This document shows positions 7,715 through 40,199 of a stretch of DNA of 64,000 nucleotides, piece by piece (the first letter of the stretch is position 1; each line of letters starts with the position of its first letter). Below the pieces are notes generated by a model that did no database searches, had not been told where the DNA came from, and saw only the letters and a program-made list of their open reading frames with translations. Source of the stretch: Candidatus Latescibacterota bacterium (GTDB lineage Bacteria > Latescibacterota > UBA2968); contig OZ244960.1 of the NCBI GenBank assembly GCA_965222605.1, forward strand, positions 2,304,001 through 2,368,000, given 5' to 3'. Position numbers and translations under genes: made by a program.

Positions 7715-7715
7715 A

Positions 7716-9047: not shown

Positions 9048-9818
9048 ATGAAATACGTGCTGTCTTTTTGGATCGTCGCGTTCATGGGTCTGGCATCTAC
9101 CGTTGCGGCGGAACAGCAATCGTTTGAGGGACAGGTCGTGAATGGGAAGTCCCTTCCAATCCATCGGGCGCGGGTCGCGCTTTACAGGCTCGACAATCCG
9201 CGCGCCCGGGTGACGACCATCACGGACGAAAACGGCGCCTTCTCGCTGCCCCTGGGAGACCTCGCGCGACCCAACGCGCTGCGGCAGAATCATCCCAATC
9301 CGTTCAATCCCTCCACCCTCATACCCTTCGAGATCTCGGAGGGAGGACACGTTCGCCTGGATATTTACAACATTCTGGGCCAGCGCGTGGTCACGCTGAT
9401 CGACGAAGAGCACCCGGCCGGGTTTTACAGGGTGCGGTGGGACGGCACGGATGCAGTCGGTCGGGGCGTGAGCGCGGGGGTCTATATCTACCGCCTCAGC
9501 ACTGCGAACTGGCGCGACGCGCGGAAATTGATGCTGCTCGACGGCGCATCGGGACGTCCGGGCGGCGGAGCCGTGAATTTCAGCGAAGAAAAGGCTCACA
9601 CGTTCGGCGTGAGGATCACCGGCGAGGGAATAATGCCTGAAACCTTCACCTGGCGCCCCGGCATGGGGTCCTTGGTGGCGGAAGTGAGACGTATAGAAGA
9701 CGTCCTTCCGCCCGAGATGGAGCACCCCGAAACAGCGGCCAATCCCTTCTCGGGGACCAGCCTCGCCTCGATTATCCAGACTGTTTCCGCGTACGGAATC
9801 GACATCGGGCGGGATTGA
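9048..9818 (+). CDS. Secreted protein with carboxypeptidase-regulatory-like beta domain and internal FlgD-Ig/T9SS-A-like domain
   Basis: AAGGAGG RBS; signal peptide; GQV...TDENGAF; QNHPNPFNPST...YNILGQRV...WDGTD...GVYIYRL. Confidence 0.75.
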   Translation: MKYVLSFWIVAFMGLASTVAAEQQSFEGQVVNGKSLPIHRARVALYRLDNPRARVTTITDENGAFSLPLGDLARPNALRQNHPNPFNPSTLIPFEISEGGHVRLDIYNILGQRVVTLIDEEHPAGFYRVRWDGTDAVGRGVSAGVYIYRLSTANWRDARKLMLLDGASGRPGGGAVNFSEEKAHTFGVRITGEGIMPETFTWRPGMGSLVAEVRRIEDVLPPEMEHPETAANPFSGTSLASIIQTVSAYGIDIGRD

Positions 9819-10356
9819 GCCAGCCACACCCATCCTTAAAGGAGACGTTCCATGAGCTTGAAATCGGCCGGCCACCGACCCCTCGTCGCGGCCCTCTGCG
9901 GCGTCCTCTTCGCGGCCTCGCTCGTCATCGTGCCGCTGGCCTCCGCGCAAGACGTGACCATCTGGTCCGCCGACCTGGATGTGAAAGCCCTCAATGTCGC
10001 CCAGGACGAACTCGGTTGTTCCGAAAGTGGCCCCTTTAATGGGCAGTGCGCCAACTCCAATGTTCTATCAGACGACGACTTCAAGTTGCACGGCACGACG
10101 TACACAATCAAGAGGATCGAAGACGACGGCGACGATCTGGTACTGACTCTGGATAAGCTCCTTCCCTCGAACGTGCTCAAGATCCTGACCCTGCACGTGG
10201 ACGATGATACCGAACTGGACTTCGATGACGCCAGCGTCAGCTCCAGCAACAAGCGTTACACCTGGGATTCCAGCCCCTCCTGGTCTTCGGGCGACGACGT
10301 GGACCTCAAGATCACGGACGCCAGCGGGCCGTCCCTGGTGAAGAACACCTCCCTAA

Positions 10357-25418: not shown

Positions 25419-25494
25419 GAAGCAAAGAGGGGCTGGGGATTGGAGGCTGGGGACTGGTTATGACAAGCGAGCGGATTTTCGGAAAAATTTGACG

Positions 25495-26808
25495 CTATGG
25501 CGGGCAAACCTGCAAGTCGCTCTTGATGGTTAAGTTAGGGATTCTATCTACAACAAGCGGTATGCATCCGGTCAGTTTGTTGCCAATGAGAGTCAAGTGC
25601 GTCAAATTTTCAAGATTGCCCAATTCAGGTGGGATAGTACCACTCAACTGGTTATGATTGAGAAGCAAATGCGTCAGATTTCCAAGGCTGCCTAACTCAG
25701 TTGGAATGCCGCCGCTCAACTGGTTATGATTGAGGGACAATATTTTCAGTTTCGCAAGGCTACTCAGTTCAAGTGGAATGCTTCCAGTCAACAGGTTGTT
25801 ATTGAGGGTCAACATTGTCAGATTCGCAAGGTTCCCCAATTCGGATGGGATGCTACCGGACAACAGGTTGTGATTAAGAGTCAACATTGTCAGATTTGTA
25901 AGATTGCCTAACTCAGATGGGATATTCCCGGTCAACAGGTTGTCAGAGAGGGCCAATAGGGTCAGCTTGACAAGGCTGCTCAGTTCAGACGGGATACTGC
26001 CGATCAGTTGGTTGCTCTCAAGAACCAGTCCCTTCAGGTTAGCAAGACCACATAATTCAAGTGGTATGCCGCCGATTAACTGGTTATCAGAAAGGGCCAA
26101 TGCCGTCAGACTGGCGAGGCTACCCAACTCAGGTGGGATAGTACCACTCAACTGGTTATTATCGAGGAATAAATGCGTCAGATTTGCAAGACGACTCAGT
26201 TCAAGTGGTATCGTACCTGTCAACCGGTTGTTGGAGAGAATTAACCCCGTTAGCCTGGCAAGGCTACCCAACTCGGGTGGAATACTGCCGGTCAACTGGT
26301 TTTTCTGGAGGGCTAATCCCGTCAGGCTGGCAAGATTAGTAAGTTCAAGTGGGATAGTACCGGTCAACTGGTTGTTGGCGAGGGTCAGTTTCTTCAAATT
26401 TGCAAGGTTGCCCAACTCAGGCGGGATGTCGCCGGTCAACTGGTTGTTGTGAAGGAGCAACCTCTCCAGCCTGGTAAGATTGCCCAATTCAGGCGGAATG
26501 CTGCCGGTCAGACCCTTATCATTTAGCTCCAATGCCTGGATGCGTAACGGCGTACCTGCAACGATAACACCTTCCCATTGTGCAATATCAGTACTATCGC
26601 TCCAGTTTAGCGTCGCCTTACCAGTTAACGTGTCTCTAACGGCCAATAGCAGGGCACAATCCTTAACCAGATCCGGATTGCTCTGAGTATTCGGCACTGT
26701 GATATCAATGGCCTGAAGCGGTTGAATTAAAAGAACAAATAATGGGATTGTACAGGCTATGGCCTGTGCCAAACGGAGAAGCAAAGCAAAGGATAGAAAC
26801 TGGCACAT
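25495..26808 (-). CDS. Secreted plant-specific-class LRR protein
   Basis: 13 repeats of 24 aa, LxGxIPxELxxLxxLxxLxLxxNx, after an N-cap LNW...WEGV. Confidence 0.9.
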   Translation of the reverse strand: MCQFLSFALLLRLAQAIACTIPLFVLLIQPLQAIDITVPNTQSNPDLVKDCALLLAVRDTLTGKATLNWSDSTDIAQWEGVIVAGTPLRIQALELNDKGLTGSIPPELGNLTRLERLLLHNNQLTGDIPPELGNLANLKKLTLANNQLTGTIPLELTNLASLTGLALQKNQLTGSIPPELGSLARLTGLILSNNRLTGTIPLELSRLANLTHLFLDNNQLSGTIPPELGSLASLTALALSDNQLIGGIPLELCGLANLKGLVLESNQLIGSIPSELSSLVKLTLLALSDNLLTGNIPSELGNLTNLTMLTLNHNLLSGSIPSELGNLANLTMLTLNNNLLTGSIPLELSSLAKLKILSLNHNQLSGGIPTELGSLGNLTHLLLNHNQLSGTIPPELGNLENLTHLTLIGNKLTGCIPLVVDRIPNLTIKSDLQVCPP

Positions 26809-26822
26809 GGTTTCTCTCCTCT

Positions 26823-28883
26823 TTATTGAGCGTTCATTAGCCTGGAGAGCAATTTATCTGCTTCAGCCTTTTCTATGCGTTTTCCATTGACTTCAGAGAC
26901 CAGTTTGATTGCAGTCCAGGCAGGAGCGTAGCCCCCTCTCAATTCTACGGATTTGCGAAAACTTTCAAGGGACTCACTGACTTCTCCAATAGAAAATTGA
27001 ACAATCCCAAGCCAATAGTAAATCATATAATTCTTGGCCCCACCATTTGGAAACAGCGTTATTGCTTTGTTGAGGTATTCACGCGCACTTTTTTTATCTC
27101 CATCAGAGAAATAACTCAAAGCAAGCACCAAATGTGCTGTTTGATATTTGCCATCTGCCAAGTTGATGGCCTTCTGAGACAGTTCTTTTGCTTTCTTGTA
27201 TTTGTACTTTCTATCTGCTATACGTGCCAGACTCATCCATCCAACAGGATCATCTCCACGCTGTTGAATCGCCTGTTGAATCACCTGTTCAGCTTTAGTC
27301 AGTTTCCCCATTCTGATATACACATCTGCCAACAATATTTTGAGAAAATAGGGTGTGTCGAGTTTCAAAAATCGATCAAAGTAATTTGACGCCGCAACGA
27401 ACTGTTCCGACTTAAAACGGCCATATCCCGCCAATAAGAGTGACAACGGATTTGCCCTATTATTTGGAACCAGAGATATGTCTTGTTCTCGTTGTTTGGG
27501 GAGCACGAGAAAGATACCGTTTCTTCCTCGCTTCCAATATTCTTGAAAGTCGGCCAGAGGGAGTTTGTGCAATTTATGGATCGATGGGTCATTGACAATA
27601 ATGACATCGCGCTGATAATCAATCCCAACAACGATTACAGTATGACTCAGGTCTGGGTCTTGATCGGCTATCAAAGCAACAGGTGGACATCCTGACTTGA
27701 GAGATTCTTCTATTTGCTCTAAATCCCAATTCAGATAGTGAATAGACAGTTCGGGAAATGCCTCTGATAGTGCGTAAAGTGCTGACAGATTATCCTCAAG
27801 CCGGTCTTCCAGCGTCAACCAATCTTCGGCCTGATTTTCAGCACCGTCCCAATATCTCATCACAGATAAAACTGAGGCTTTAAGGCAAGTGACTCCTCGC
27901 CCTTGAGCGTAAAATGGCACTTGAGAAACAAATAGACGTTCACCGCGCTTGTCCTGATTCAGATTCTCAAGGGCGTGAGTTGCATAATCAATATCTGTAT
28001 TAGTTGTGGCGTTTTTCTTCAGCATATTAAAATAAAATTTAGAACTATCAACTTGACCTATTTCATAAAAAGTTTCAGCTATCATAAGAAGTGTATCTTT
28101 ATCAGGATGTTGCCTTTTGTTTCCGAGTTGGTCAATGTAAATGCTTTGTTTTAAGTAGGGGAGCGCGTTTTCAAACTGTTCTAAAAAAAAGATCGTCTCT
28201 CCTTTTCTTCGAACGGCCTGACGATTTTCTTCAACCTGATTTAGGATCGCAAGTGCTTGCTCAAAAAATCCCGCTTTTAAGTTTAACTCTGCAAGCACGA
28301 TGCGATTTTGGATATCTTCAGGCCTATTCTTCAATGCGTTCTCTAATAGCTCAATCGCTTTTCGATATAATTTTAGTCCATTATAAGTTGCTACAAGATT
28401 TATTTTTATTTGTGCATTATCCGGATCAATTTCCAATCCTCTTTCTCCAATTTCCCGTGCCAGTGCCCACCTCTGTTGTTTTGCGTATATTCCCGAAAGA
28501 TTGCGATAAACACCTGGCATGTGCAAGCCCAGGTCTATAGCTCGTTCAAGTCCTTTTGCTGCTGCTTCGTAATTATTCTGAAAAAAAGCAACGGTGCCTA
28601 AGCCGTAATACGCTTCTGCAAACAAACTGTCACAAGAAATAGCTGTTGCAAAATGTCTTTGAGCTAAATCCAATTGTCTTAAAATGCCAAAACTTTTCCC
28701 AATCAGAGTATGGGCCTGAGCAGAACAAGAGTCTGCTTTGAGAACCTCTTCTGCTGCCTGGATACAGCTTTGATAATCTTTGTTCGCATAAAAAGTCTCT
28801 GCCTGGCGCAACAACTCACTACCATCAGAAAATCCAGGGAATAAAAAAATTAAAATCAACAGGCATTTTGATAGGCCGTTCAT
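26823..28883 (-). CDS. TPR-repeat protein with central C39-like cysteine peptidase domain
   Basis: Signal-like N-terminus; TPRs on both sides of VPFYAQ...TC...SVMRYW...HTVIVVG...NDP. Confidence 0.8.
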   Translation of the reverse strand: MNGLSKCLLILIFLFPGFSDGSELLRQAETFYANKDYQSCIQAAEEVLKADSCSAQAHTLIGKSFGILRQLDLAQRHFATAISCDSLFAEAYYGLGTVAFFQNNYEAAAKGLERAIDLGLHMPGVYRNLSGIYAKQQRWALAREIGERGLEIDPDNAQIKINLVATYNGLKLYRKAIELLENALKNRPEDIQNRIVLAELNLKAGFFEQALAILNQVEENRQAVRRKGETIFFLEQFENALPYLKQSIYIDQLGNKRQHPDKDTLLMIAETFYEIGQVDSSKFYFNMLKKNATTNTDIDYATHALENLNQDKRGERLFVSQVPFYAQGRGVTCLKASVLSVMRYWDGAENQAEDWLTLEDRLEDNLSALYALSEAFPELSIHYLNWDLEQIEESLKSGCPPVALIADQDPDLSHTVIVVGIDYQRDVIIVNDPSIHKLHKLPLADFQEYWKRGRNGIFLVLPKQREQDISLVPNNRANPLSLLLAGYGRFKSEQFVAASNYFDRFLKLDTPYFLKILLADVYIRMGKLTKAEQVIQQAIQQRGDDPVGWMSLARIADRKYKYKKAKELSQKAINLADGKYQTAHLVLALSYFSDGDKKSAREYLNKAITLFPNGGAKNYMIYYWLGIVQFSIGEVSESLESFRKSVELRGGYAPAWTAIKLVSEVNGKRIEKAEADKLLSRLMNAQ

Positions 28884-28969
28884 TTCAATGACCTCGGTCT
28901 ATATGGTATACTCAGATAATCCATTATTAAAGATAAATCAGCGTGTAGGAATTATAGTCACGGAATGAA

Positions 28970-29183
28970 CTACCAGGGAATTTCGATTTCGATTCCAGCA
29001 GATACTTGTATTCTATCTCTGGCACTTGTTTCCGGCGGCATTGATGGACCTACCTGCGTAGGATTTTCTAGCAATTCTATTTCAACGTAGAATGGACCAA
29101 AGTTTCCTTGTGCCTAGGAGTGAATAAGCCATATACTGCCAATATGGTCTGAGCATTTTCAATATTCTAAGAAATTGCAACAT
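28970..29183 (-). pseudogene. Deletion scar: ABC exporter N-terminus (29183-29082) joined to the 3' end of another gene (stop at 28970-28972)
   Basis: MLQFLRILKMLRPYWQYMAYSLLG resembles MTQIFTIVKMLRPYWRYIIQSLCVG of 35235..36950; a second frame reads GNFGPFYVEIELL...IQVSAGIEIEIPW*. Confidence 0.65.
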
Positions 29184-29227
29184 GTGCTATGTCCATATTC
29201 TCTAAATTGATCTTAATGCTTAAATTG

Positions 29228-29893
29228 TTACTGAGAGGCTATCCAAAATCTACATCCCGCAATAAAGTCCAATGTGCCTGTTATCTTTTCGGAAACATCT
29301 TCTCGTATTCCTCTAAAATGCACAGGTTGAAAACGGATTTCAGTAAAAAAATAGACCTCTTTGTCTTTAATCAAAGCGAATGTACTACCTATCCCAAACA
29401 CTCCGCCAAAATGTAGCTTTGGAAACGCGTCCTGATCATCTTCAGGACAAAAATGGAAGATGCCCAGTCCCACGTTTAGATACGGTCCAAATGGCGCATT
29501 CTTTTCATAAAAGTTACACCTCAATTCAACGAGAAATGAATTTAACCAACCGCCAGAATCAAAATTGCGATATTCTTGTGTATTCTGTACCTCTCTTTGA
29601 GACATGCGAAAAAAAGAGCTGTGCAAAGACAACTCAAATGGTTCGTACCCAACAAACAACTCACTGTTTACCGCGGGTCCCATCTGAGTTCTAACGAGAT
29701 TGAAAGAGGTGTGCCCGTGCTTTAGACCTTTGGCATTCCAACCTTCGACATCCCATTCGGCGTGGTTTATCACTGGAAATGAAGGACCAAACCCAAGCCC
29801 AAATCCAGCATAGATTTCTTGACAATCATTCCTGGAGGGCCAAAAGGACAATATCAAGATTATTATAAGACGGTATTTCATACTCATCATCAC
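29228..29893 (-). CDS. Putative small outer-membrane beta-barrel protein
   Basis: Signal peptide; alternating strands PYLNVGLG, FGGVFGIG, FFTEIRF, terminal AGCRFW. Confidence 0.65.
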   Translation of the reverse strand: MMMSMKYRLIIILILSFWPSRNDCQEIYAGFGLGFGPSFPVINHAEWDVEGWNAKGLKHGHTSFNLVRTQMGPAVNSELFVGYEPFELSLHSSFFRMSQREVQNTQEYRNFDSGGWLNSFLVELRCNFYEKNAPFGPYLNVGLGIFHFCPEDDQDAFPKLHFGGVFGIGSTFALIKDKEVYFFTEIRFQPVHFRGIREDVSEKITGTLDFIAGCRFWIASQ

Positions 29894-30034
29894 CTAATTT
29901 TTGAGATGAAAATCTGGGAAACTCAATTTATCCATCTTTTGAAGAAATTTTTTCCATATCAAATCATGTATGTGACCTCGTTCTATAACAATTTTTCCCT
30001 CGACTGTCATCCCATAAGCTAAAGAGTATTTGCT

Positions 30035-31090
30035 TCAAAGAGCCTTCAAAACATTCTTCAGAATACACGCCTCCCTTTGAGAAAGATCATCCATCACCGT
30101 GATGATCTTATTGATACGCCCCACATCCCACACTCTCTTGACCTTCAATAACGCTCGTAACTTAAGCATCATCAGATGAATCTGATGCGCCTTCTGTTCA
30201 ACCTCCTTGTACGCCTGATGAAACTGGTCTGACGGACGCAAATACCCGTGCTCCTCCAGATAAGAAAGCCTGTTTAACATACAACACTTGTGCTCCCACA
30301 GCGTGAACAGATGCCGCCGATCCCACAACCGAGGATGGACAAACAAATGAGTAAAGTAATCCCTCAAGAGCTTATACGTCGCCATCCCAAAGACGCCTTC
30401 AACTGGCTTACGCAACATCCGGTAGTGGACAGACGGATTCTCAGAATGGACATAGGCTTGCAACTGGTCAATAACAGCGTCAATGTCAAATTCATAGACA
30501 CCGTCCTCGTTATACTCAAAAAGCTCCACCCGGTACGATCTGCGTTTCTCGGGATCAATCCAGCGAAATGCCTCTTCAAAATCTGAATACGCAACCCTTG
30601 AAACAGCGTAATTTCGTGCCCGATCAAATCCCAGAGTCTCAAGCGTTTCTGTATGATCATCGTATCCGAATACCAGAATAGCATGTGGATTATGTATTTT
30701 CTCATAAAATGGCGTATGCGGCAGGAAATACTCATCGGCGATCAACTGGACATAGAAGCCCTCATCAATTTGATCGCGAATAAACGGCACAATCTGGTGA
30801 TATACTTTAGCGATTGATCGCCTCGGAACGGTGTAGATAGACAGCCACGGTGGGGAGTATGCGCCCTGAAAATAGAAGTTGAATCGGATGTTATGTTTGC
30901 TCTCCTTTAACAGGTCAACGGCGAACAGTTGTATGTAATTGCAGAAGAACCAGGGAATATACGCATCGTGAAGTGACATAATCGAAAGCCGATAGGCATG
31001 GCGGGGATAGCCGTGTATGGGGGGGGATGGTTGGATGGGAAGCGATCTTTTCATACTACGCATCTCGTATGGGGCTGTCGCATTTTTCAA
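30035..31090 (-). CDS. BtrH-like protein (papain-like fold, putative carrier-protein-dependent acyltransferase)
   Basis: DEYFLP...HNPHAILVFGYD motif resembling BtrH N-terminal domain proteins; adjacent to an ACP gene. Confidence 0.55.
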   Translation of the reverse strand: MKNATAPYEMRSMKRSLPIQPSPPIHGYPRHAYRLSIMSLHDAYIPWFFCNYIQLFAVDLLKESKHNIRFNFYFQGAYSPPWLSIYTVPRRSIAKVYHQIVPFIRDQIDEGFYVQLIADEYFLPHTPFYEKIHNPHAILVFGYDDHTETLETLGFDRARNYAVSRVAYSDFEEAFRWIDPEKRRSYRVELFEYNEDGVYEFDIDAVIDQLQAYVHSENPSVHYRMLRKPVEGVFGMATYKLLRDYFTHLFVHPRLWDRRHLFTLWEHKCCMLNRLSYLEEHGYLRPSDQFHQAYKEVEQKAHQIHLMMLKLRALLKVKRVWDVGRINKIITVMDDLSQREACILKNVLKAL

Positions 31091-31094
31091 ATTT

Positions 31095-31364
31095 TCAGGT
31101 AGTCAAAACGCACTCACGCACAGACCGGATATAGTCTTCAATCGTCTGCACACTTTTAAAAACTTCGGCACTCAGGTCTTCATCAGAGATTTCAAAGCCA
31201 AATTCATCTTCTATGCCTACAACGAGTTCTACCATTGCCATTGAGTTGAGACCCATTTCTCCACCAAAAAGTATGTCTGAATCTCCTATTTCTTCAGGCT
31301 CAATTTCAAGATTTAATGCACGCACAATTGTCTGTTTTATCTGTCTTTTTAGATCATTATCCAT
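31095..31364 (-). CDS. Acyl/peptidyl carrier protein (89 aa)
   Basis: GGAGG RBS; GLNSMAMVELVVGIEDEFGFEISDEDL..F.SV..I; Ser present at the phosphopantetheine position. Confidence 0.85.
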   Translation of the reverse strand: MDNDLKRQIKQTIVRALNLEIEPEEIGDSDILFGGEMGLNSMAMVELVVGIEDEFGFEISDEDLSAEVFKSVQTIEDYIRSVRECVLTT

Positions 31365-33297
31365 ACACCCCTCCTGATTGCTCATCTGCAAAGTACCTGA
31401 TGATGACGTCAACCATCCTCTGCTGTCCCTCCTCTGAGACAATTTCTACGGCTGGAATCTCAAATTTATCCTCCAAATAGGCCAATTTTTCTTTAATTTC
31501 TTCTTTTGACATTTGACGCGGACTAATCAGTGTTCGACCATAAGCTGCTCGAATGTGTTTTTCTTTATCACTCATTGCCAGACATAACACGGAGCCTTTG
31601 GTAATTGCCTTGAGCGTGTTCATAGTATCGCGTATATACTCGCCGTCATCAACGCTGTTCACGACCAATATGTTGGCATCGGGTTTTGTACCCAGCATAA
31701 AAGCAAGCGTTGAAAGCGTATGATTTCCCGGCTCATGGATATCATAAGGGATACTCCCCGACTGTGCGCCGACAAGCATTAAATCTGGTTTCTTATTGGC
31801 ACAGACCTCGCGCATTTTGAAATCCAGATAGGGCGCATGAAACTGTATCGGAAATTGCAGTGGAGAGGCGTATCCCGTTGGAAATGCCACATCCATTCCA
31901 AATAACTGAGAATGGTGTTCGGTACCGATTTGCCCAACCTTGTATCCCTCTTTTGTCAGCTTTGACCTCAAAGCGAGTTGAACAGTAAACTTACCTTGTT
32001 GAGCACTCGTGCCAAAAACACCGATAACTGGCACATCAACGGCTGGATAATCGTGGAGCTGAAGTGCTTTAAGCAGGTCGTTTTGATGAATGTCGGGCGA
32101 ATAAATCCAGAGGTTCTTTTTACGTGCCTTTTCGATCAGATCTCTTAGATCCTTTTGGTATATGGACAAAAAGCTGAATACATTTAAGTTGGCATCAATG
32201 GCTTTCTCAATACTCTCGCGCAGGACATTCTTTTTGGTGATTCGACTCAGTTCATCTACATAACCCAGAATGAGCGTATCAGCCTCTTTCAATATCTCTT
32301 GAAATCGTGGCTGAATCCGTATGCCAACGGGCGGTATGCCTATCGCTTCACCAGCATCTTTCCCAACATAACCTTTGGCAATGGGATCAGCGATGCCCAC
32401 AATTTCAAAATTTAATAATTCCCTGAAACGCACCAGGCTATGTATTTCTTTGTTATAGGGATAAATAGCTGCTCTTTTGATATTGTTTGGATCAAAGGAT
32501 TGGGACGTTTGGGGAGTATGCACGCGAATCTTGCGACCTGATGGGATTTTTTCATGCACTTCTCGATTGGCATTCACTTCCAATATGTTTCTAATCCCAT
32601 TCAGATTGGCTTTGGGAAAGGCTTGTCTGATTAACGCGATAATGCCCGTGATGTGGGGCGCGGCAAAGCTACTGCCTTCAACAATATGCTCTCGCCCACC
32701 CGCCCAGAGAACGCGCTGAGTTGTCCCTGGTGCGATACATTCAATAGACTCTCCTGCACGAAACAGATAATTGTAACGCCCTTTTATATCCCCCGCTTTC
32801 ACACCGATCACATTGGAGAAATAGGCGGGAAAACTCTCCTGCCCTGAATTGTGTTCGGCAGCGACTATTGCGATACCCTTTTTCGTTGCTACCTGACATA
32901 TATCCAACAGAGCATGCTTGACTTGCGCGTCCGTCGTTCCAAGGCTCAGGTTAATGATATCGACGTTCTGATCAATTGCCCAGCGAATGGACTCAAGGAG
33001 AATTTTCTGTTCTACAATTAAAGATTGATCGAAGATTTTTATAGCGTATAGCTCTGTACCAGGAGCCTTCTTTTTTACAATACTCGCAACCGCCGTGCCA
33101 TGACCAGATGTGTCTCGATAGTCTTGAGATGTATGGACGCTGCCCACAGAAAGCTCAAAACAAATTCCTGCGGTCACATGTTGCAACATTGCATGCGAAC
33201 GATCAATCCCGCTATCAACGATTGCAACCTTGACACCCTCTCCGTTTAGATCATGGAAATTGCATTTGTATTTCATGGTTAGACCACTGTTGTCCAC
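31357..33297 (-). CDS. S8 subtilisin-like peptidase fused to a DUF1611/TIGR04066-like P-loop domain
   Basis: Triad VAIVDSG / GHGT / GSSFAAPH; C-terminal half PVIGVFGTSAQQGKFTVQLAL...GYKVGQIGTE...LFG. Confidence 0.8.
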   Translation of the reverse strand: MDNSGLTMKYKCNFHDLNGEGVKVAIVDSGIDRSHAMLQHVTAGICFELSVGSVHTSQDYRDTSGHGTAVASIVKKKAPGTELYAIKIFDQSLIVEQKILLESIRWAIDQNVDIINLSLGTTDAQVKHALLDICQVATKKGIAIVAAEHNSGQESFPAYFSNVIGVKAGDIKGRYNYLFRAGESIECIAPGTTQRVLWAGGREHIVEGSSFAAPHITGIIALIRQAFPKANLNGIRNILEVNANREVHEKIPSGRKIRVHTPQTSQSFDPNNIKRAAIYPYNKEIHSLVRFRELLNFEIVGIADPIAKGYVGKDAGEAIGIPPVGIRIQPRFQEILKEADTLILGYVDELSRITKKNVLRESIEKAIDANLNVFSFLSIYQKDLRDLIEKARKKNLWIYSPDIHQNDLLKALQLHDYPAVDVPVIGVFGTSAQQGKFTVQLALRSKLTKEGYKVGQIGTEHHSQLFGMDVAFPTGYASPLQFPIQFHAPYLDFKMREVCANKKPDLMLVGAQSGSIPYDIHEPGNHTLSTLAFMLGTKPDANILVVNSVDDGEYIRDTMNTLKAITKGSVLCLAMSDKEKHIRAAYGRTLISPRQMSKEEIKEKLAYLEDKFEIPAVEIVSEEGQQRMVDVIIRYFADEQSGGVYG

Positions 33298-33315
33298 ACG
33301 CCATCTTCGATATGC

Positions 33316-33636
33316 TCACTCTGCATCAGGCCGCTGACTTGGACCTTTCACCACAATCGGACTGATAAACATTTTTATTAAAATATCTAACAAAACATGG
33401 CCTGCTATAAGAAAATGCAATAGAGTTACTTCAATGCTAATCCATAAGTAGAGTAATAAGTAAAGTAATAAAAGAAATATGAGGATCGAAATACCGCGTT
33501 TCCAGTAATCAACGCTCCAAATCGTGCCACAATTTTTGCAGGGATACTTGATAAGACCGGCACGCAGTTTGCGCCACCACCCAACGGGATGTCCACACTT
33601 TGGGCAGGTATAAAGGTTTTTTATATTTATTGGCAT
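33316..33636 (-). CDS. Small CxxC-x18-CxxC zinc-ribbon protein with two TM helices
   Basis: CPKC...CKNC followed by two hydrophobic segments; paralog of 33655..33960. Confidence 0.8.
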   Translation of the reverse strand: MPINIKNLYTCPKCGHPVGWWRKLRAGLIKYPCKNCGTIWSVDYWKRGISILIFLLLLYLLLYLWISIEVTLLHFLIAGHVLLDILIKMFISPIVVKGPSQRPDAE

Positions 33637-33654
33637 ATATTTGGTTCCAAATGC

Positions 33655-33960
33655 TCACTCTGCATCACGCCGCTGTGGTTCCTGCTTCTCAACAACCGGA
33701 TCGACATATCCTGCAACGAACAATCCTGAAGCAAAGATTACCAAAAAGACCCAAAAATTCACATGAGGCTTAAGCCATAATGCGGTTGAAAAGGTAAATA
33801 TAGAAACTAAAATCAGGCGTCTCACAGAACCAAAACCCAAAGGCGTACCGCAATTCTTGCAGGGCCATATACTGAAGATGTTAGCACTCAACTTACGTCG
33901 CCATCCAACGGAATGGCCACATTTTGGACAGGTGTAAATGTTTTTGATGATTCTTGGCAT
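33655..33960 (-). CDS. Small CxxC-x19-CxxC zinc-ribbon protein with two TM helices
   Basis: GGAGG RBS; CPKC...WPCKNC; C-terminus QRRDAE versus QRPDAE in its neighbour. Confidence 0.8.
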   Translation of the reverse strand: MPRIIKNIYTCPKCGHSVGWRRKLSANIFSIWPCKNCGTPLGFGSVRRLILVSIFTFSTALWLKPHVNFWVFLVIFASGLFVAGYVDPVVEKQEPQRRDAE

Positions 33961-34064
33961 ATTTTAGGCCCTCCATCCTGGATGAGAGAATTTTGCAGGT
34001 ATTGCACTCATATATACAATAGTACAATACCCGCAACCATCAAGATACCTAAGTTTGGCGTTTC

Positions 34065-34460
34065 CTATTCACCATATGCTTGTACGATTGGGTCGTCGTA
34101 GTCAATGTCACTACTCCAATCTATAAATCCTTCCATAATAGCCTCACTTGCATCACTGGCCAACTCTCTTATGGCTTCTCCTGCTTGTGCCTCGGCAGCG
34201 GCCTGATCAAATGTAGTTTCAAGGACACCTTGCAAACCATCTACCATTTCATCATGGTAATAATGGTCAACGATAGGCATAGCTGAAGCCGCATAAGGCC
34301 CAACATAAGGAATTGTTGCTACTGTTGCTGTAGCACCCCAAAAAGTCCAAAAATATATTTCCTCCATATCCATCAACCCATCCATCTTTGTTTCACCCTC
34401 ATAAGCCTCTACGGGCATAATGGTCTCGTAATGCATCTTTCTTTTCACCAGCTTTTGCAT
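34065..34460 (-). CDS. Putative RiPP/bacteriocin precursor (131 aa) with CLI_3235-like leader
   Basis: GGAGG RBS before ATG 34460; leader MQKLVKRKMHYETIMPVEAY; acidic Cys-free remainder with a hydrophobic segment; lies among exporter and protease genes. Confidence 0.7.
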   Translation of the reverse strand: MQKLVKRKMHYETIMPVEAYEGETKMDGLMDMEEIYFWTFWGATATVATIPYVGPYAASAMPIVDHYYHDEMVDGLQGVLETTFDQAAAEAQAGEAIRELASDASEAIMEGFIDWSSDIDYDDPIVQAYGE

Positions 34461-34543
34461 GTGATCCTCCAATGGTATAAAAATTAGAAATCGATGAATG
34501 TTTCCATTCACCATGAACGAAGCACCGTGTAGTGATCTCTCAT

Positions 34544-34879
34544 TTACCCCCTTTCCTTGTCAAGAGGTGCTTTTCGACTATCAGCGTCAGAATTTTGGTC
34601 TGAAGATTGCACAATTTTAACGCGCAGCAATGAAAGAATGATAAAAACGCCAACTGGCAGAAGACAATAGACAGGAAAGCTCCAATCCTTGACCCAGAAT
34701 TCAAAAAATAACCAGAAAGCTACAAATACCGGTAGTAGCAAGAACGATCTTCTCAGATCATCTTTAAGCATGATGCCACATTTCTTACAGGGCCAGGTGA
34801 GACCAGGTTTCCAGGTCCACCATTTATACCCCTCCCACGGGCGGTTATATCCACAATTTGGGCACTTCGCTTTGAACAT
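34544..34879 (-). CDS. Small CxxC-x21-CxxC zinc-ribbon protein with two TM helices
   Basis: CPNC...KWWTWKP...WPCKKC; near-duplicate of 34913..35233. Confidence 0.8.
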   Translation of the reverse strand: MFKAKCPNCGYNRPWEGYKWWTWKPGLTWPCKKCGIMLKDDLRRSFLLLPVFVAFWLFFEFWVKDWSFPVYCLLPVGVFIILSLLRVKIVQSSDQNSDADSRKAPLDKERG

Positions 34880-34912
34880 ATTAAATCCTCGCTAAACGCT
34901 TTTGAAGCTTTG

Positions 34913-35233
34913 TTAAACGGCACTTTGGGGGTTATCAGCGTCAGAATTTTGGTCTGAAGATTGCACAATTTTAACGCGCTTCAATGAAAGAATGATAAAA
35001 ACACCAACCGGTAGGAGACAATAGACAAGAAGGCTCCAATCCTTGACCCAGAATTGAAAAAATAACAAGAAGGCCACATATATGAATAGCAGCAAGAACG
35101 ATCTTCTCAGATCATTTTTAAGCAGGATGCCACATTTCTTACAGGGCCAGGTGGAATTAGGTTTCCAGGTCCACCATTTATCTCTTTCCCAGGGGCTTTC
35201 ATATTCACAGTTTGGGCATTTTGCTTTAAGCAT
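34913..35233 (-). CDS. Small CxxC-x21-CxxC zinc-ribbon protein with two TM helices
   Basis: MLKAKCPNC...WPCKKC...VKIVQSSDQNSDAD; starts immediately after the ABC exporter stop. Confidence 0.8.
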   Translation of the reverse strand: MLKAKCPNCEYESPWERDKWWTWKPNSTWPCKKCGILLKNDLRRSFLLLFIYVAFLLFFQFWVKDWSLLVYCLLPVGVFIILSLKRVKIVQSSDQNSDADNPQSAV

Positions 35234-35234
35234 A

Positions 35235-36950
35235 TTAAATCCTCGCGGCTCGCTCCTGGAGCATAGAATAAACACCATCTTGCAGCATCAAAACTTCGTG
35301 GCTACCTTCTTCCGCAATTCTTCCCTGATCGATGACAACGATTTTGTCTGCACGCCGGATGGTTGACAGACGATGGGCAATGACGATCACCGTCCTTTGT
35401 TTGCAAATTTCTTTCATCGCTTCCTGAATATAAAACTCAGATTCGTTATCCAGTGCCGCAGTAGGTTCATCCAGGATCAAGATGGGCGTGTTCTGCAATA
35501 ACACCCGTGCAAGCGCGACCCTCTGCTTCTGACCCTCTGAAAGTTGCGCTCCCTGCTCACCGATGATCGTGTGATAACCACTGGGTAGCTTCGTGACAAA
35601 ATCGTGGATATAGGCTGCCCGGGTCGCGGCTTCGACATCGATCATGGATATAGGCTTTCCAAACGTCAGATTCTCCAAAATACTCCCCTGAAACAGCGCA
35701 CTACCTTGCATCACAAAGCCAATATTTTGGCGCAGAGAATTGAGACGATATTGCCTGATATCGACCCCATCAATCAAGACTTGACCATCCACTGGATCGT
35801 AGAACCTCGGGATGAGCTTCGCCAGAGTAGATTTGCCCGATCCGCTTCTTCCAACAATGGCGACGGTTTGATCGACACCGATCTCGAGATTGATCTCGTT
35901 CAACACCACCCTTTCGGGTTGATATGCAAAACTGACATCTCGAAACTCTATCCTTCCGTGGACCTCGTTGAGTTCAGCCAACTGCGGTTCATCGCGTATA
36001 TCAGGCGTGATATTATAGACTTCAAAAAAGCGGTCCGTATGAACCAGTGTAGATTCAATGCGCCGCAACAGACCAATAAGACTTTTAATAGGTCCATACA
36101 AATACCCCACATAGCCCGTAAAAGCCATATAACTCCCCAACGTCAAATTGTCAGATAGCACCTCGTGCCATCCGTAGAAACCGTAGGCAAGTGTTCCACC
36201 CGTCTTAACAATGGTGCTGACATATCCCGTTGTGCCCGAAAAAAGCGACACTTTCATTCTGAGATTTGCAACATTGATGAACAATCCCTGCAATTTCTGA
36301 AAAAATGAGGTCTCCAACCCCAAAGACTGTACTGTTCTAATCGAAGAGATTGACTCGTAATTTTTGGCCGATAACTCTGCTGAGCGTTCTGCAACTTCCC
36401 TCGTATATTTGCGGATAAACCGTCTCGAAATCAAAACCAAAAGCGTATCAAAGGGCAAGACCGTGAGGCTGATCAGGGCCAGTTTCCAATTGATAAAGAA
36501 CAGAATAGGCGGAAAGATCACGAGTTGGAGCGAATTGATAATCAGTGTGTTAATCAAACCAATAACACTGGCAATTGAACTCCGCATATCCCTGAACCGA
36601 GATAATATTTCACCCGTCTCTCGATTGTCAAAAAAACTGAAATCCAACGTTTGGATATGTTTGTAAAAACGCGCTTGAAAATCATACCCCATCCGGACGC
36701 CAACACACTGACCAAAATACCCACTGATAAATCTCATCCCGCCCACACCCAACGACATCAGCATGCCCAATAACAGAAGGAAATTCAACAGAGAGAAATC
36801 TTTGTGCGGATATACATCATCGATCATTATTTTTGTGAAATAAGGCCCTGGTATCTGAAACAGCATAAACAAAATGCCAACACAAAGCGACTGAATGATA
36901 TATCGCCAATAAGGTCGAAGCATCTTAACAATAGTGAATATTTGCGTCAA
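35235..36950 (-). CDS. ABC exporter (TMD+NBD) of peptide/type I secretion type, no N-terminal C39 domain
   Basis: FFDNRETGEILSRF, GRSGSGKST, LSEGQKQR, ILDEPT, IAHRLST. Confidence 0.93.
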   Translation of the reverse strand: MTQIFTIVKMLRPYWRYIIQSLCVGILFMLFQIPGPYFTKIMIDDVYPHKDFSLLNFLLLLGMLMSLGVGGMRFISGYFGQCVGVRMGYDFQARFYKHIQTLDFSFFDNRETGEILSRFRDMRSSIASVIGLINTLIINSLQLVIFPPILFFINWKLALISLTVLPFDTLLVLISRRFIRKYTREVAERSAELSAKNYESISSIRTVQSLGLETSFFQKLQGLFINVANLRMKVSLFSGTTGYVSTIVKTGGTLAYGFYGWHEVLSDNLTLGSYMAFTGYVGYLYGPIKSLIGLLRRIESTLVHTDRFFEVYNITPDIRDEPQLAELNEVHGRIEFRDVSFAYQPERVVLNEINLEIGVDQTVAIVGRSGSGKSTLAKLIPRFYDPVDGQVLIDGVDIRQYRLNSLRQNIGFVMQGSALFQGSILENLTFGKPISMIDVEAATRAAYIHDFVTKLPSGYHTIIGEQGAQLSEGQKQRVALARVLLQNTPILILDEPTAALDNESEFYIQEAMKEICKQRTVIVIAHRLSTIRRADKIVVIDQGRIAEEGSHEVLMLQDGVYSMLQERAARI

Positions 36951-36981
36951 GATTCCGAATCTCCAATTTGTCTGTCGTCAT

Positions 36982-38160
36982 TTAAAAAACCAAAGGATTT
37001 TGCTTATCAACGATGCCAAAAGCATCTTTTATCTTTTTCCACGCAATCTTCCATAAGAAATTTCTTTCAATAATGATCTTTGCATCTAACCTCATGCCAT
37101 AAGCCACGGGATAAATCTGATCGCCACTGCGAACAAAGGGATCATCGATCAATATCTTCACCGGGTATAATGTCAGAGCCGTTGCATTTGGGGGCAAAAC
37201 TTGATTCCGGCTGGGCAATTCACTAACGCTACCACTGAAAATTTTGTAACTCATATGTGGAAACGCATGGATGTACAACTTGACATCTTGACCCATTTCA
37301 ATTTTTGAAATATCCACCTCTTGCACAAAAACCCTTGCCTGCCATTCATTTAACTGCGCCAATTCCAATATCGGACTGCCAACTAAAACCCGATCTCCTT
37401 CGATTGTTTCAATATCTGAGGTCAGCACAATGCCCGAGATTGGGGAAATGATAACGGTTTTTCTTATCTGTTCCTGAATCCAATCGCGTTCTTGTTGGAA
37501 TTTGTCACCGACCAATTTCAAAGTTTGGATTTCTTTCTCTCTGACAACCAGAGCATCAAGCTCAATTTCCAGATAGGTCATGCGTTGCAGGATGCGATTG
37601 AGATTGTTTTCTTGAAGTTTTACAGGCAAAAGCGTCTCAAGAGGTCGTGTCCGTTCCTTTCTCTCTTTGAGATATTTTTGATACAATTGTTGCTCTCGTA
37701 AAATCTGTTCAAGCCGAAGACCACCCGCTTCGTGTTCAAGTCGCGTCTGATCAAGACTCGATTCTATTCTTTGCCTATCAAAAAATAATGTCTCTCTGAG
37801 TTCCTCTATCTGCTGTTGATTGATTGCGATCTCTTTTTCAATTTTCGCGGCCTCTTTTCTCCAATCTGAAGCATCGAGAACAAAAAGTGTATCCCCTTTT
37901 GCGACCTGCTGACCAGCGTGAATAAGCACCTTCTTTATCGTCCCTATGGTCTCTGATTTGACAAATTTTTTCTCAACGGGTTCAACGTGACCAGAAGCCT
38001 CAACACTGATTTCCATTTCGACATCCCAGCCTAAAATCACAATCCCTGCAATAAGCAGAATACTCGATGCTATAATAGACAGAATGAAGAATCTTATAAA
38101 CTCAAAGCCCCTTAGCTTGATCTCATGATCAGATTCAGGCTGTTTGGTGGCTAAAGCCAT
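36982..38160 (-). CDS. HlyD-family membrane fusion protein
   Basis: N-terminal TM helix, GQQVAKGDTLFVLD, long coiled coil, IISPISGIV, GMRLDAKII. Confidence 0.9.
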   Translation of the reverse strand: MALATKQPESDHEIKLRGFEFIRFFILSIIASSILLIAGIVILGWDVEMEISVEASGHVEPVEKKFVKSETIGTIKKVLIHAGQQVAKGDTLFVLDASDWRKEAAKIEKEIAINQQQIEELRETLFFDRQRIESSLDQTRLEHEAGGLRLEQILREQQLYQKYLKERKERTRPLETLLPVKLQENNLNRILQRMTYLEIELDALVVREKEIQTLKLVGDKFQQERDWIQEQIRKTVIISPISGIVLTSDIETIEGDRVLVGSPILELAQLNEWQARVFVQEVDISKIEMGQDVKLYIHAFPHMSYKIFSGSVSELPSRNQVLPPNATALTLYPVKILIDDPFVRSGDQIYPVAYGMRLDAKIIIERNFLWKIAWKKIKDAFGIVDKQNPLVF

Positions 38161-38253
38161 AATGGAGACGTAAGACAGGTAGCGATAATGGCTAAAACCG
38201 ATGGATTTCGACCGAGCAAATAAACATTCAACTCAAACATCCTTCCAAAACGT

Positions 38254-39090
38254 CTAAATTTCTCCGCGCATAAATTTTTTGCGGTACTGGGTAGGAGAAA
38301 TGCCATGTATCCTCTTGAAATCCTCACTGAAACGATTTGATCCACGAAACCCACACATGCGTGCAATTTCATACATAAACAGTGATGATCCCGTTAAAAA
38401 ATGCTCTGCCTGCGCTATTCTGACCTCCCTCAGTTTTTCACGGAAGGTCTTGTCAAAATATTTTCTAAACAGCGCGTGACCATGCGATAGCGAGAGATCA
38501 AAATGGCGCGTGAGATCTTCAAATTTCAGGTCTGGTTTTCTGTAACGCTCCTCCAAAAATGATTCCAATGCCTCTTGCGAAACCTTCTCTCGGCCGACGT
38601 TCAACGGCTGTTGAAAGGATTTGGGCAGTGAACGGGATGCTTCACGGACCCGCGACACATTGTATCCCACTTCATTCAGTAGAATACAGTTTTTGACCTC
38701 TGCCAAAAATTTGTCCTTCACAATCGGTTTATCCAGTACGCTCACAGCACCTGCTGTGAGTATTTCTTTCGTTACTTCCATGAGCAAAACGCTCCCCATC
38801 ATCAGAATATTTGTCTGAATTTTCTCTGCTGCAACGCGCTCCAAAAGTGCGACCCCATCAAGACCTGCTATATCTTTTTCAGCGATAGCGAGAGCAATCT
38901 TCTCTCGTCTCAAAATTTTAAGTCCTTCTTTTGCATTTTCCGCTGTACACACGTCATAAGGTTCATCGCTCAAGAATCCCACAAGGGTCGATAGAACGCG
39001 GGGGTCGGGATCTATAATCAGAATTTTCTGTTTGTTCAGATCAGGACGCGAATGATCGGCACGAGGAGGAACTGTCATATATTTTCGCAA
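38254..39090 (-). CDS. Atypical response regulator: receiver domain plus AraC-type HTH
   Basis: KILIIDPD...LAIAE (Glu at the usual phospho-Asp)...DKPI; C-terminal EIARMCGF...FSEDFKRIHGISPTQYRK. Confidence 0.85.
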   Translation of the reverse strand: MRKYMTVPPRADHSRPDLNKQKILIIDPDPRVLSTLVGFLSDEPYDVCTAENAKEGLKILRREKIALAIAEKDIAGLDGVALLERVAAEKIQTNILMMGSVLLMEVTKEILTAGAVSVLDKPIVKDKFLAEVKNCILLNEVGYNVSRVREASRSLPKSFQQPLNVGREKVSQEALESFLEERYRKPDLKFEDLTRHFDLSLSHGHALFRKYFDKTFREKLREVRIAQAEHFLTGSSLFMYEIARMCGFRGSNRFSEDFKRIHGISPTQYRKKFMRGEI

Positions 39091-39162
39091 ATGTATGTAT
39101 CCTTAAGTAAAAAAATAATTGATTTATGACAATACAGATTTTTCACTACTTAAACAGATATA

Positions 39163-39178
39163 TGCAACATGTGTGCCA
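39163..39178 (-). promoter_or_regulatory. Sigma54 (-24/-12) promoter
   Basis: Minus strand TGGCAC-ACATG-TTGCA matches TGGCAC-N5-TTGC(A/T), about 70 bp upstream of the island's first gene. Confidence 0.75.
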
Positions 39179-39536
39179 ATGTGATTTTTTCTAATGATAA
39201 TTCTTGTAAGGCATTATTTTTAGTTCGCATAGAGGTTATTATCGAGTAAAAGTCAGACTGAATATCGAATTCAAAGGTGAAAACATCGTTCACTTTTCTC
39301 TTTCCGATTGAACATTAAATACACGTTGACAACCGCGCTTCAGGTTGTTACTTTAGCTTCGTCTTCTCAAGTTATCAGCTTGAGATATTTGCCGCCGCTG
39401 ACAGGGGACTTGGTCGAGTCTTGTCAGCGGCTCTTTTATGATAATACCATCGCGTCTGTAATTGCAATTCAAAAAGATTCCGCATATCTCTGATTCCTTC
39501 CGTATATATATGATTTTCTCATTTTTTTTCGTTTTC

Positions 39537-40199
39537 TCACTTCTCACTTCTTATTGTCGAACCAAAAAAGTTTGTCTTCAAATCGATCTTCTTTCCAACC
39601 CGGTTGCCCACCAGCCCGCGCGCACCTGCAATATCAAAATCCTTCAACGCAATCTGAAACTCGCCCTTCACCACAAAAAAGTCCCCCGGTGCTCGCTTCT
39701 TTGTCTGCTCTGACGCCAGCAAATACGTCGCCTCAAAGGGAATCGCTATCTCCTTATCCACGCCGTGCAGTAAAAATGTCCCCATTGCCAAACCCGTAAT
39801 AACCGCCTTATCTTTCCCCACCGTCACAGACACATCCTTCAACCCCGCAATATCAAACCCAATCACCGGAAACTGTTTTTCATCCAACCAATCTTCACTG
39901 TGCAAATGCGCGTCGCGCTTCTCAATACCCGTTTCCATACTCGCAACCTGCACCTCAATCTTCCCGGCCATACCCTCCAAATTTGCCGGATCCAGCTTTA
40001 ATTCGCCCGAAATCTCCGACGCTGTACCGTGAATCTCTTCCAGCGGCGCCGAACTCACAAACCGAATCTGATTCTTACCCACCTCATTGCGCAACACAAT
40101 CGTCTGAACACCCTCAACTGGCAACCCCAATAACGTCTCTGCACAAACCTGTTGCGCTGCAATACACCCGACGAAAAATAAACCGACGACCCATCGCAT
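39537..40199 (-). CDS. YceI-family lipid/polyisoprenoid-binding protein
   Basis: Signal peptide; SMETGIEKRDAHLHSEDWLD...FPVIGF...LHGV. Confidence 0.88.
   Translation of the reverse strand: MRWVVGLFFVGCIAAQQVCAETLLGLPVEGVQTIVLRNEVGKNQIRFVSSAPLEEIHGTASEISGELKLDPANLEGMAGKIEVQVASMETGIEKRDAHLHSEDWLDEKQFPVIGFDIAGLKDVSVTVGKDKAVITGLAMGTFLLHGVDKEIAIPFEATYLLASEQTKKRAPGDFFVVKGEFQIALKDFDIAGARGLVGNRVGKKIDLKTNFFGSTIRSEK

Follow-up and report, generated by a model that had tools for sequence, protein, structure and literature searches.

What does a bacterium make with a subtilase that is fused to a DgcN-like domain and encoded between an acyl carrier protein (ACP) and a small leader-bearing protein, when no radical S-adenosylmethionine (radical SAM) maturase is at hand? 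This question is raised by a locus of a Candidatus Latescibacterota bacterium whose genome consists of one contig of 6.34 Mb. The window analysed here is a stretch of 64,000 nucleotides of that contig, and window positions are counted from its first letter. An earlier note, made from the letters alone, had described window 25495-39178 as one island for peptide maturation and type I export. Every open reading frame (ORF) that it listed is real and lies on the minus strand where it had been placed, and hmmscan confirmed most of the proposed families; TIGR04065 gave no match, TIGR04066, TIGR04069 and BtrH_N stayed below their cut-offs, and the barrel protein has no family. The conserved system is smaller than that island and is a single operon on the minus strand, window 30035-39178. 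The data support the view that it is a radical-SAM-free, Cys-free relative of TIGR04066-type maturation cassettes, and we give an even chance to its being an operon for the maturation and export of a ribosomally made small protein. In transcription order it holds:

39163..39178, minus strand: sigma-54-type -24/-12 promoter motif, 73 nt upstream of the regulator ORF
38254..39090, minus strand: regulator, pseudo-receiver plus AraC-type helix-turn-helix (Response_reg E 1.5e-15, HTH_18 E 3.1e-16)
36982..38160, minus strand: HlyD-family periplasmic adaptor with one N-terminal membrane anchor (HlyD_3, HlyD_D23)
35235..36950, minus strand: ATP-binding cassette (ABC) exporter, permease plus ATPase, 571 aa (ABC_membrane, ABC_tran)
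34913..35278, minus strand: Zn-ribbon membrane protein 1 (Zn1), candidate immunity protein (TIGR04104 23.5 bits, cut-off 45)
34544..34879, minus strand: Zn-ribbon membrane protein 2 (Zn2), paralogue of Zn1, no family match
34065..34460, minus strand: precursor, 131 aa, a 20-residue basic leader ending in Ala-Tyr plus a 111-aa acidic core
33655..33960, minus strand: Zn-ribbon membrane protein 3 (Zn3; TIGR04104 23.2 bits), 41% identity with Zn4
33316..33636, minus strand: Zn-ribbon membrane protein 4 (Zn4; TIGR04104 32.0 bits, cut-off 45)
31357..33297, minus strand: fusion protein, predicted cytoplasmic S8 subtilase plus DUF1611/TIGR04066-like (DgcN-fold) domain (Pfam and NCBIfam matches)
31095..31364, minus strand: ACP (PP-binding E 1.2e-10, 41.9 bits, gathering score 20.8)
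30035..31090, minus strand: BtrH-fold (AziU3/CtaG/CcbD-like) protein without the catalytic Cys (BtrH_N 27.5 bits, gathering score 29.7)

The reading that we prefer, which as a whole seems to us evenly balanced between right and wrong, combines leader cleavage, carrier-dependent modification, type I-like export and immunity conferred by Zn-ribbon proteins. The S8 domain would cut after the conserved Ala-Tyr, and the DgcN-like domain together with the phosphopantetheinyl ACP would transfer an acyl or aminoacyl group to a core amine, the chemistry being probably an N-acylation. Because the fusion sets a transferase beside the very site where an amine appears, the new N-terminus left by cleavage would be the most economical acceptor. 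The BtrH-fold protein would carry out a further accessory step that depends on the carrier protein, the ABC/HlyD pair would export the product in type I style, and the four Zn-ribbon membrane proteins would give the producer immunity, from which it would follow that the product is a bacteriocin-like toxin. The operon would be driven by the sigma-54-type promoter, with the receiver/AraC regulator acting independently of phosphorylation. More tentatively, and with doubts that prevail over our confidence, we propose that the S8-DgcN-like fusion and the ACP, with a Cys-less BtrH-fold accessory, form a widespread post-translational modification machinery that couples leader proteolysis at a Tyr site to carrier-dependent acylation of an amine, and that this machinery has shed its radical SAM enzyme in Latescibacterota and Gemmatimonadota, where it would turn 12-kDa acidic proteins, exported by a type I-like route, into a new class of lipidated or acylated bacteriocins matched by a new family of Zn-ribbon immunity proteins.

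The fusion enzyme, the carrier protein and the BtrH-fold protein

The proposed S8-DUF1611-like fusion was borne out, with PF00082, DUF1611_N and DUF1611_C all above their gathering scores. Peptidase_S8 (PF00082) reached 109.5 bits (gathering score 21.8), and among 14 diverse fusions the S8 triad D28/H66/S210 is invariant, N150 is at least 90% conserved, and the P-loop residues G429, T430 and F437 of the second domain are invariant. No hydrophobic N-terminus was found on the protein, and it is therefore predicted to be cytoplasmic. Among named families, the S8 part comes closest to the leader peptidase QhpE (E 3.5e-40), with 137.7 bits against a cut-off of 165. The second part matches DUF1611_C and DUF1611_N (PF07755 and PF17396) with 49.9 and 25.0 bits (gathering scores 25 and 22.6). 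The hmmscan check with TIGR04066 that the earlier note had suggested came out in part: the match runs from end to end (model positions 1-359 of 361, E 8.2e-43) and stops at 146.8 bits, the cut-off being 200. Judged by this score, the TIGR04066 part of the fusion is clearly a homologue and not an equivalog.

A structural model of the C-terminal 377 residues (predicted local distance difference test, pLDDT, 87.1) has DgcN (7xrj), an N-acetyltransferase by its PDB title, as its top match in a structural comparison with the PDB (E 3e-14, template modelling (TM) scores 0.58/0.65), followed by the DUF1611 structures 2g0t and 2obn (range of E 3e-14 to 2e-11) and, more weakly, by dihydrodipicolinate reductases and the succinyl-CoA synthetase alpha subunit, some of these entries being CoA-bound. 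The likeness to DgcN consists of this best structural match, the DUF1611 Pfams and the conserved P-loop of the family, with only 16% identity. DgcN is a stand-alone enzyme of D-glutamate catabolism, whereas the domain here shares one polypeptide with a protease and has an ACP as its partner. DgcN takes acetyl-CoA as donor and a free amino acid as substrate.

The fusion is common, and outside this island it frequently keeps company with a radical SAM enzyme and Cys-rich peptides. A word-indexed protein search that scored 8000 candidates gave 1590 proteins at E <= 1e-3, and the best 120 matches carried both PF00082 and PF07755 in every case (120/120). Full-length examples come from KSB1, Gemmatimonas phototrophica, Rosettibacter primus and several Clostridia as well, and genomes of the host's genus hold several paralogues each.

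The start of the ACP gene overlaps the stop of the fusion gene. Its assignment as an ACP holds, with a PP-binding match and an attachment residue, Ser41, that is invariant in 12 of 12 ACPs, the partners of Clostridial fusions included; the link to TIGR04069 does not, since that model, with a cut-off of 70, gives 19.3 bits. Better scores come from generic ACP models, and an AmcB-type ACP model reaches 55.9 bits (cut-off 80).

For the last gene of the operon, which had been called BtrH-like, the fold was recovered and the family score was not: the BtrH_N match, short of its gathering score, covers residues 103-148 only, and a structural model of the protein (pLDDT 74.3, residues 48-78 poorly defined) matches AziU2/U3 (E 1.8e-8, TM 0.60-0.64), CtaG (E 6e-8) and CcbD (E 9e-6) in Foldseek. 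PDB sequence searches with profiles of the BtrH-like family returned nothing significant, the sole lead being a weak AziU3 stretch at E 1.8. A full HMMER search collected 4979 cluster representatives of the family; the word-indexed search had given only 4. Among 51 aligned sequences no Cys is conserved. Position 32, which a helix start in the model rather than an alignment of residues assigns to the catalytic Cys site, is Ala in 47 of them, and His136 is present in 50. At position 50 there are 33 Ser, 9 Asn and 6 Cys; as a candidate nucleophile (Cys here, Ser in paralogues) this position was dropped, being Asn or Ala in 10 of the 51. Two sequences of the family may be fusions to larger synthetase-type proteins: P0140 (2689 aa), with the BtrH-like domain at residues 2339-2680, and P0226 (774 aa), with the domain at residues 1-343.

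In the parts of PMC12865890 that treat these enzymes, CtaG is a papain-like ligase with a Cys-His-Asp triad that uses carrier-protein-bound donors, and BtrH and AsbE share its fold and triad and likewise act on carrier-bound donors. The protein studied here has in common with BtrH, AsbE, CtaG, CcbD and AziU3/U2 a two-part fold, papain-like in the N-domain and helical in the C-domain (Foldseek E 1.8e-8 to 2e-5), a conserved His and a neighbouring carrier protein. Unlike the BtrH/CtaG ligases it has no conserved Cys, has lost the triad and carries its own His267-Lys268 in the helical domain, invariant among the 51 sequences. By sequence comparison, then, it belongs to a Cys-less branch of the fold.

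The precursor, its neighbours and the spread of the cassette

The start of the 131-aa precursor was placed at the ATG at 34460 because GGAGG lies 5 nt upstream of it. Its 56 relatives at E <= 0.01 are all 73-157 aa long, and two of them bear the names of Gemmatimonadetes and Poribacteria metagenome-assembled genomes. In an alignment of 31 sequences, 17 sites within residues 1-20 are invariant or at least 90% conserved, this segment ending in Ala-Tyr and being followed by acidic residues, and the core is variable save for a C-terminal acidic motif in most members. The present core (111 aa, 12,231 Da, pI 4.05) has 24 Asp plus Glu, 2 Lys plus Arg and, as the earlier note had read it, no Cys. Two other leader variants, with a Lys-rich start and an Ala-Tyr end, stand ahead of unrelated cores in L014/L027 and L019/L029.

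The idea that the leader is shared with CLI_3235-type precursors survived in style and not in profile. TIGR04065 did not match the precursor even at E <= 10 and gave nothing above its cut-off in five fusion-carrying genomes, controls showing similar noise. Leaders of similar style do occur on short Cys-rich ORFs that neighbour fusion genes of Clostridia, of Rosettibacter and of another Latescibacterota genome; judged by eye, they start Lys-rich and end in a hydrophobic residue, one residue, Ala or Leu, and Tyr. A Gly-rich ORF in Gemmatimonas has a leader of the same style. These resemblances support the shared leader that the earlier note had proposed, although the curated HMM does not detect it. 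When metagenomes were scanned with the alignment of precursors, 447 pattern matches came up, none of which tblastn confirmed. In another Latescibacterota genome, two tandem ORFs of 71-75 aa upstream of the fusion gene (L041, 3427-3984) have an Ala-Tyr leader end, hydrophobic cores and 4 Cys each.

Zn1 has two CxxC pairs and hydrophobic stretches and is 81% identical to Zn2, of which L012 holds a 96% identical orthologue. Zn-ribbon genes are found only by precursors of the present core family (L012, L025, L026, L028), with fragments in L013 and L016, and their copy number differs between loci. Other core types are flanked by CPBP/Rce1-like genes in place of the Zn-ribbon genes, and CPBP/Rce1-like genes are linked to bacteriocin self-immunity. 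That the two kinds of gene co-vary with the core type would be the pattern expected of cognate immunity genes. Family scans matched the Zn-ribbon proteins to no immunity family.

On the export side, the HlyD protein has a hydrophobic stretch at residues 18-53 and matches TIGR01843 with E 1.1e-23 and 83.9 bits (cut-off 208.65), and the ABC protein scores 398.6 bits with TIGR01846 (cut-off 725.55). Because the alignment of the ABC protein to HlyB-type and bacteriocin-exporter models begins only at model position about 137-153, it has no N-terminal peptidase domain, and a Pfam scan found no C39 peptidase domain in it. ABC/HlyD export in a diderm phylum is consistent with this gene content.

The proposed sigma-54 promoter gained support: TGGCAC-N5-TTGCA has a single match in the window against 0.08 expected (8 of 100 shuffles give one match), and the motif recurs upstream of the regulator in the paralogous clusters L015, L020, L023 and L026. 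Scans for sigma-70 promoters and terminators stayed at chance level. The receiver is atypical as described, with Glu at the place of the phospho-acceptor Asp in an alignment to two solved receivers. A sigma-54-type promoter requires an AAA+ enhancer-binding activator, and since the operon's own receiver/AraC regulator has no AAA+ activator domain, that activator must be encoded elsewhere.

Gene neighbourhoods were compared in 47 loci around fusion genes, 20 of them chosen from related-genome matches and 27 from a wider search; two are duplicates, several are short contigs, and neighbours were found with profiles built for this analysis. In 37 of the 47 loci an ACP is encoded no more than 5 kb from the fusion, and an ABC exporter (39), an HlyD gene (23) and a BtrH-like gene (23) are also found near it. 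The order regulator-HlyD-ABC-variable region-fusion-ACP-BtrH is repeated in L012, L013, L019, L020, L026, L028 and L029. The co-occurrence that the earlier note had proposed to look for is therefore there, the core genes recurring together in other genomes and phyla. The BtrH-like family is present in 34 of 121 genomes sampled across the phylum, and in the 14 genomes covered by both the fusion and the BtrH searches a comparison of coordinates showed that 29 of the 31 full-length BtrH-like matches have a fusion match no more than 4 kb away. It was found in 0 of 13 genomes of family f2, though several of these carry the fusion; because this family and many clusters do without the gene, its product is regarded as accessory. 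BtrH-like genes also stand beside the radical-SAM-linked Clostridial fusions L048, L051 and L054, and are not special to the radical-SAM-free form.

No radical SAM gene was found in the island, in agreement with the earlier note: the genome has 17 PF04055 matches, the nearest at window 62766-63266, and a custom hidden Markov model (HMM) found none in the segment of the window that was compared either. That nearest match is the only one in the window and lies 23.6 kb from the island. Near the fusion, a custom HMM, which may miss distant members, detected radical SAM in 11 of the 47 loci, and the 12 loci with a leader-profile match have none (0/12). In a Pfam annotation of seven distant loci, radical SAM adjoins the fusion in KSB1, Rosettibacter and the Clostridia L048, L050 and L053, accompanied by an ACP in all but L048 and by an ABC gene in three. 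By the same annotation, L046 has two ABC genes and neither radical SAM nor ACP, and in the Gemmatimonas locus the fusion is accompanied by HlyD, ABC, CPBP-protein and precursor genes and radical SAM is absent. The present genome holds a second fusion, 38% identical, in L011 (G000:C1:3976000-3995999) at 9758-11725, with an ACP just upstream; among its neighbours are a radical SAM/SPASM gene at 4133-5632, methyltransferase-like and sugar-nucleotide genes and an ABC exporter. L011 looks like a radical-SAM-linked sister system.

The G+C content of the island is 39-46% against 50-53% in its flanks; seen over the whole window, the low values extend across 26000-40000 and the rest has 50-65%. The low G+C is consistent with a mobile or fast-evolving cassette region. 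In relatives, the YceI-flanked site is occupied by differing cassette variants. In L025 (G001) and L026 (G013) a pair of cassettes, complete or partial, stands in tandem, and about 3.5-10 kb separate their fusion genes. Between cluster types the fusion-ACP-BtrH module keeps at least 88% DNA identity, and the ABC genes of the same types only ~65%, a pattern that suggests exchange of the module by recombination. In L013 (G015) the interval 5177-8321 between ABC and fusion holds a CPBP-like membrane protein, a 359-aa ORF without known family and a second, divergent BtrH-like gene (35% identical), and the Zn-ribbon gene is reduced to a 44-aa fragment.

Rival readings and the inserted segment

Several observations weigh against the reading that we prefer. 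The substrate of DgcN, the one DUF1611 relative that has been characterised, is a free amino acid and not a protein. The BtrH-like family has no conserved nucleophile, which makes a covalent transacylation of the CtaG type unlikely, and AziU3, the nearest solved relative, does unrelated aziridine chemistry in the account that PMC12865890 gives of it. No gene for loading the ACP was recognised in the analysis. The cleavage site would be placed by conservation only, and immunity would be assigned from position and from a co-variation seen in just four loci. The scores for TIGR04066, TIGR04069, TIGR01843 and TIGR01846 all fall short of the curated cut-offs, and no outer-membrane factor was identified, no genome-wide search for one having been made. 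The strongly acidic core, in which no stretch exceeds the transmembrane hydropathy threshold, is unlike most pore-forming bacteriocins; such an acidic, non-amphipathic core counts against a classical bacteriocin.

The enzymes could be read differently, with S8 only removing the leader and the DUF1611 domain, ACP and BtrH-fold protein making or remodelling a small molecule or lipid, or serving as scaffold or chaperone for export. The activity of DgcN on a free amino acid would fit, as would the small-molecule pathways that the solved BtrH-fold relatives serve, and no conserved acceptor residue stands out in the precursor core. We consider this unlikely, yet worth serious attention. The S8 and DUF1611 parts are joined in all 120 best matches of a family with 1590 members among the candidates scored, and so persistent a fusion speaks for the two acting together on one substrate; several phyla have such fusions, always with a peptide-export context; and in Paenibacillus, by the cluster description in PMC10731318, the same parts are separate genes of one bacteriocin cluster.

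A second alternative concerns the product, which could be a secreted signal, a matrix or an adhesion factor, the Zn-ribbon proteins then being sensors, regulators or assembly factors. We rate it somewhat below the first. The very acidic core with no clear transmembrane stretch, the want of a match between the Zn-ribbon proteins and any immunity family, and the operon's own regulator all agree with it. Set against these are the small membrane protein genes of variable copy number that flank the precursor and co-vary with core type, the CPBP/Rce1-like genes, linked to self-immunity, that take their place beside other cores, and the several paralogous cassettes per genome and swapping at one site, which fit antagonism loci.

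Head-to-tail macrocyclisation, in which S8 would cut both ends of the core and join them into a circular protein, seems to us very improbable. The C-terminal Tyr-Gly-Glu motif of the core family does echo the Ala-Tyr plus acidic residues of the leader, and the S8 domain weakly matches the PatA/PatG cyanobactin protease model (E 8.8e-9); however, that match has only 34.6 bits against a cut-off of 421, other core types lack the C-terminal motif while their enzymes are near-identical (S8 fusion 93% identical in L014), and cyclisation leaves the ACP and the DgcN-like domain without a role.

The last alternative involves the lower-numbered end of the proposed island, where the following features lie:

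29118..30031, minus strand: sister-cluster remnant, with the last ~138 nt of an HlyD gene, an intact barrel ORF and the first ~65 nt of an ABC gene
29228-29893, minus strand: putative outer-membrane barrel ORF, 221 aa, with signal peptide; intact, no family match
26823..28883, minus strand: predicted periplasmic tetratricopeptide repeat (TPR) plus C39_2 peptidase-like protein (Peptidase_C39_2 E 8.7e-7, many TPR models)
25495..26808, minus strand: leucine-rich repeat (LRR) protein, strain-specific insertion (LRR models)

The claim of a single island at 25495-39178 fails in this segment, since the barrel, TPR-C39 and LRR genes are missing at the same site in five of five relatives. L013, L019, L026, L028 and L029 hold both flanks and lack the counterpart of window 25421-30032; in all five only 20-91 nt separate the flank gene (ending at 25420) from the end of the BtrH-like gene (30033), and we therefore take these 4.6 kb as an insertion in the present genome. 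Two of its blocks, 26759-28959 and 29118-30031, have 84-90% DNA identity to the L014/L027 cluster type, in which the order is HlyD, barrel, ABC, precursor, TPR-C39, fusion, ACP, BtrH. The second block is 84-87% identical to L014 15334-16232 and L027 3198-4088, and ~2.1 kb with the ABC and precursor genes has been lost from the remnant. The intact TPR-C39 gene encodes a protein that shares 88% identity with those of L014 and L027; none of the 20 related loci compared contains a gene corresponding to the LRR gene. On these alignments the barrel and TPR-C39 genes are the remnant of a sister cluster and the LRR gene is an insertion, and none of them belongs to the conserved system. A host-directed effector system in which these three genes act with the maturation genes, as the earlier note had entertained, is accordingly hard to credit: the LRR protein resembles Xanthomonas XopAC/XopAE-type LRR effectors below cut-offs, and all genes are on one strand, but the only hint, the LRR gene, is a strain-specific insertion that no related locus carries, the segment with all three genes is absent from five of five relatives, and the barrel and TPR-C39 genes, 84-90% identical to another cluster type, stand here without its ABC, precursor and enzyme genes.

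Known relatives and significance

With the CLI_3235 class of Firmicutes, a bioinformatically defined group (TIGR04066/04068/04069/04065), the operon has in common a DUF1611-type homologue, a subtilisin-type protease, an ACP-like protein, an ABC exporter, a leader-bearing precursor and the leader style of Clostridial Cys-rich precursors. It differs from that class in the absence of a radical SAM maturase, in a Cys-free core of 111 aa as against about 25-45 aa, in having the protease and the TIGR04066 part in one polypeptide, and in the added HlyD adaptor, sigma-54 promoter and Zn-ribbon membrane proteins. Because the four curated TIGR models miss their cut-offs or do not match, and because there is neither a radical SAM gene nor a Cys-rich core, we do not file the locus as a member. 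In the SacP23 cluster of Paenibacillus polymyxa, as PMC10731318 sets it out, TIGR04066, ACP-related, radical SAM and subtilisin genes are separate ORFs, and the paper's remarks on these genes only guess at their roles. Our literature search found no functional study of the TIGR04066/ACP pair, of DUF1611-type cassettes for ribosomally synthesised and post-translationally modified peptides, or of the BtrH-fold family.

The maturation of the quinohemoprotein amine dehydrogenase gamma-subunit offers a second comparison. The Qhp pathway consists of the QhpC precursor, the radical SAM enzyme QhpD, the subtilisin-like leader peptidase QhpE, an ABC exporter and the AraC-type regulator QhpR. Shared with it are a cytoplasmic S8 leader peptidase, ABC export in a diderm and an AraC-type regulator, the match to QhpR being weak (E 2.8e-8). 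The present operon differs in having neither radical SAM nor dehydrogenase genes and in missing the QhpE cut-off, and its DgcN-like domain, ACP and BtrH-fold protein have no counterpart in the Qhp pathway.

Like type I secretion, class II microcin and double-glycine export systems, the operon places an ABC exporter and an HlyD adaptor by a small acidic protein and putative immunity genes. In contrast to export by the double-glycine type or by peptidase-containing ABC transporters, the ABC protein has no C39 or C39-like domain, the leader lacks a double-glycine motif, and the protease is a separate, cytoplasmic S8 enzyme. As for type I secretion proper, the cut-offs of TIGR01846, TIGR01842 and TIGR01843 are not reached, and no outer-membrane factor was identified, none having been sought genome-wide.

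What is new here is a radical-SAM-free TIGR04066-type cassette with type I-like export and new accessory genes. In most lineages the peptide is also a substrate of a radical SAM maturase, which would mask the contributions of the fusion and the ACP; the radical-SAM-free, Cys-free form offers a clean substrate, in that a mass change on the 12.2-kDa core could come only from the fusion, the ACP or the BtrH-fold protein. Both the fusion and the BtrH-fold families are abundant, and neither has an assigned chemistry. If the reading that we prefer is true, it would assign a role to the TIGR04066/TIGR04069 cassettes found throughout Firmicutes and in several diderm phyla, and would add a new enzyme logic for peptide natural products, a leader peptidase fused to a DgcN-type transferase.

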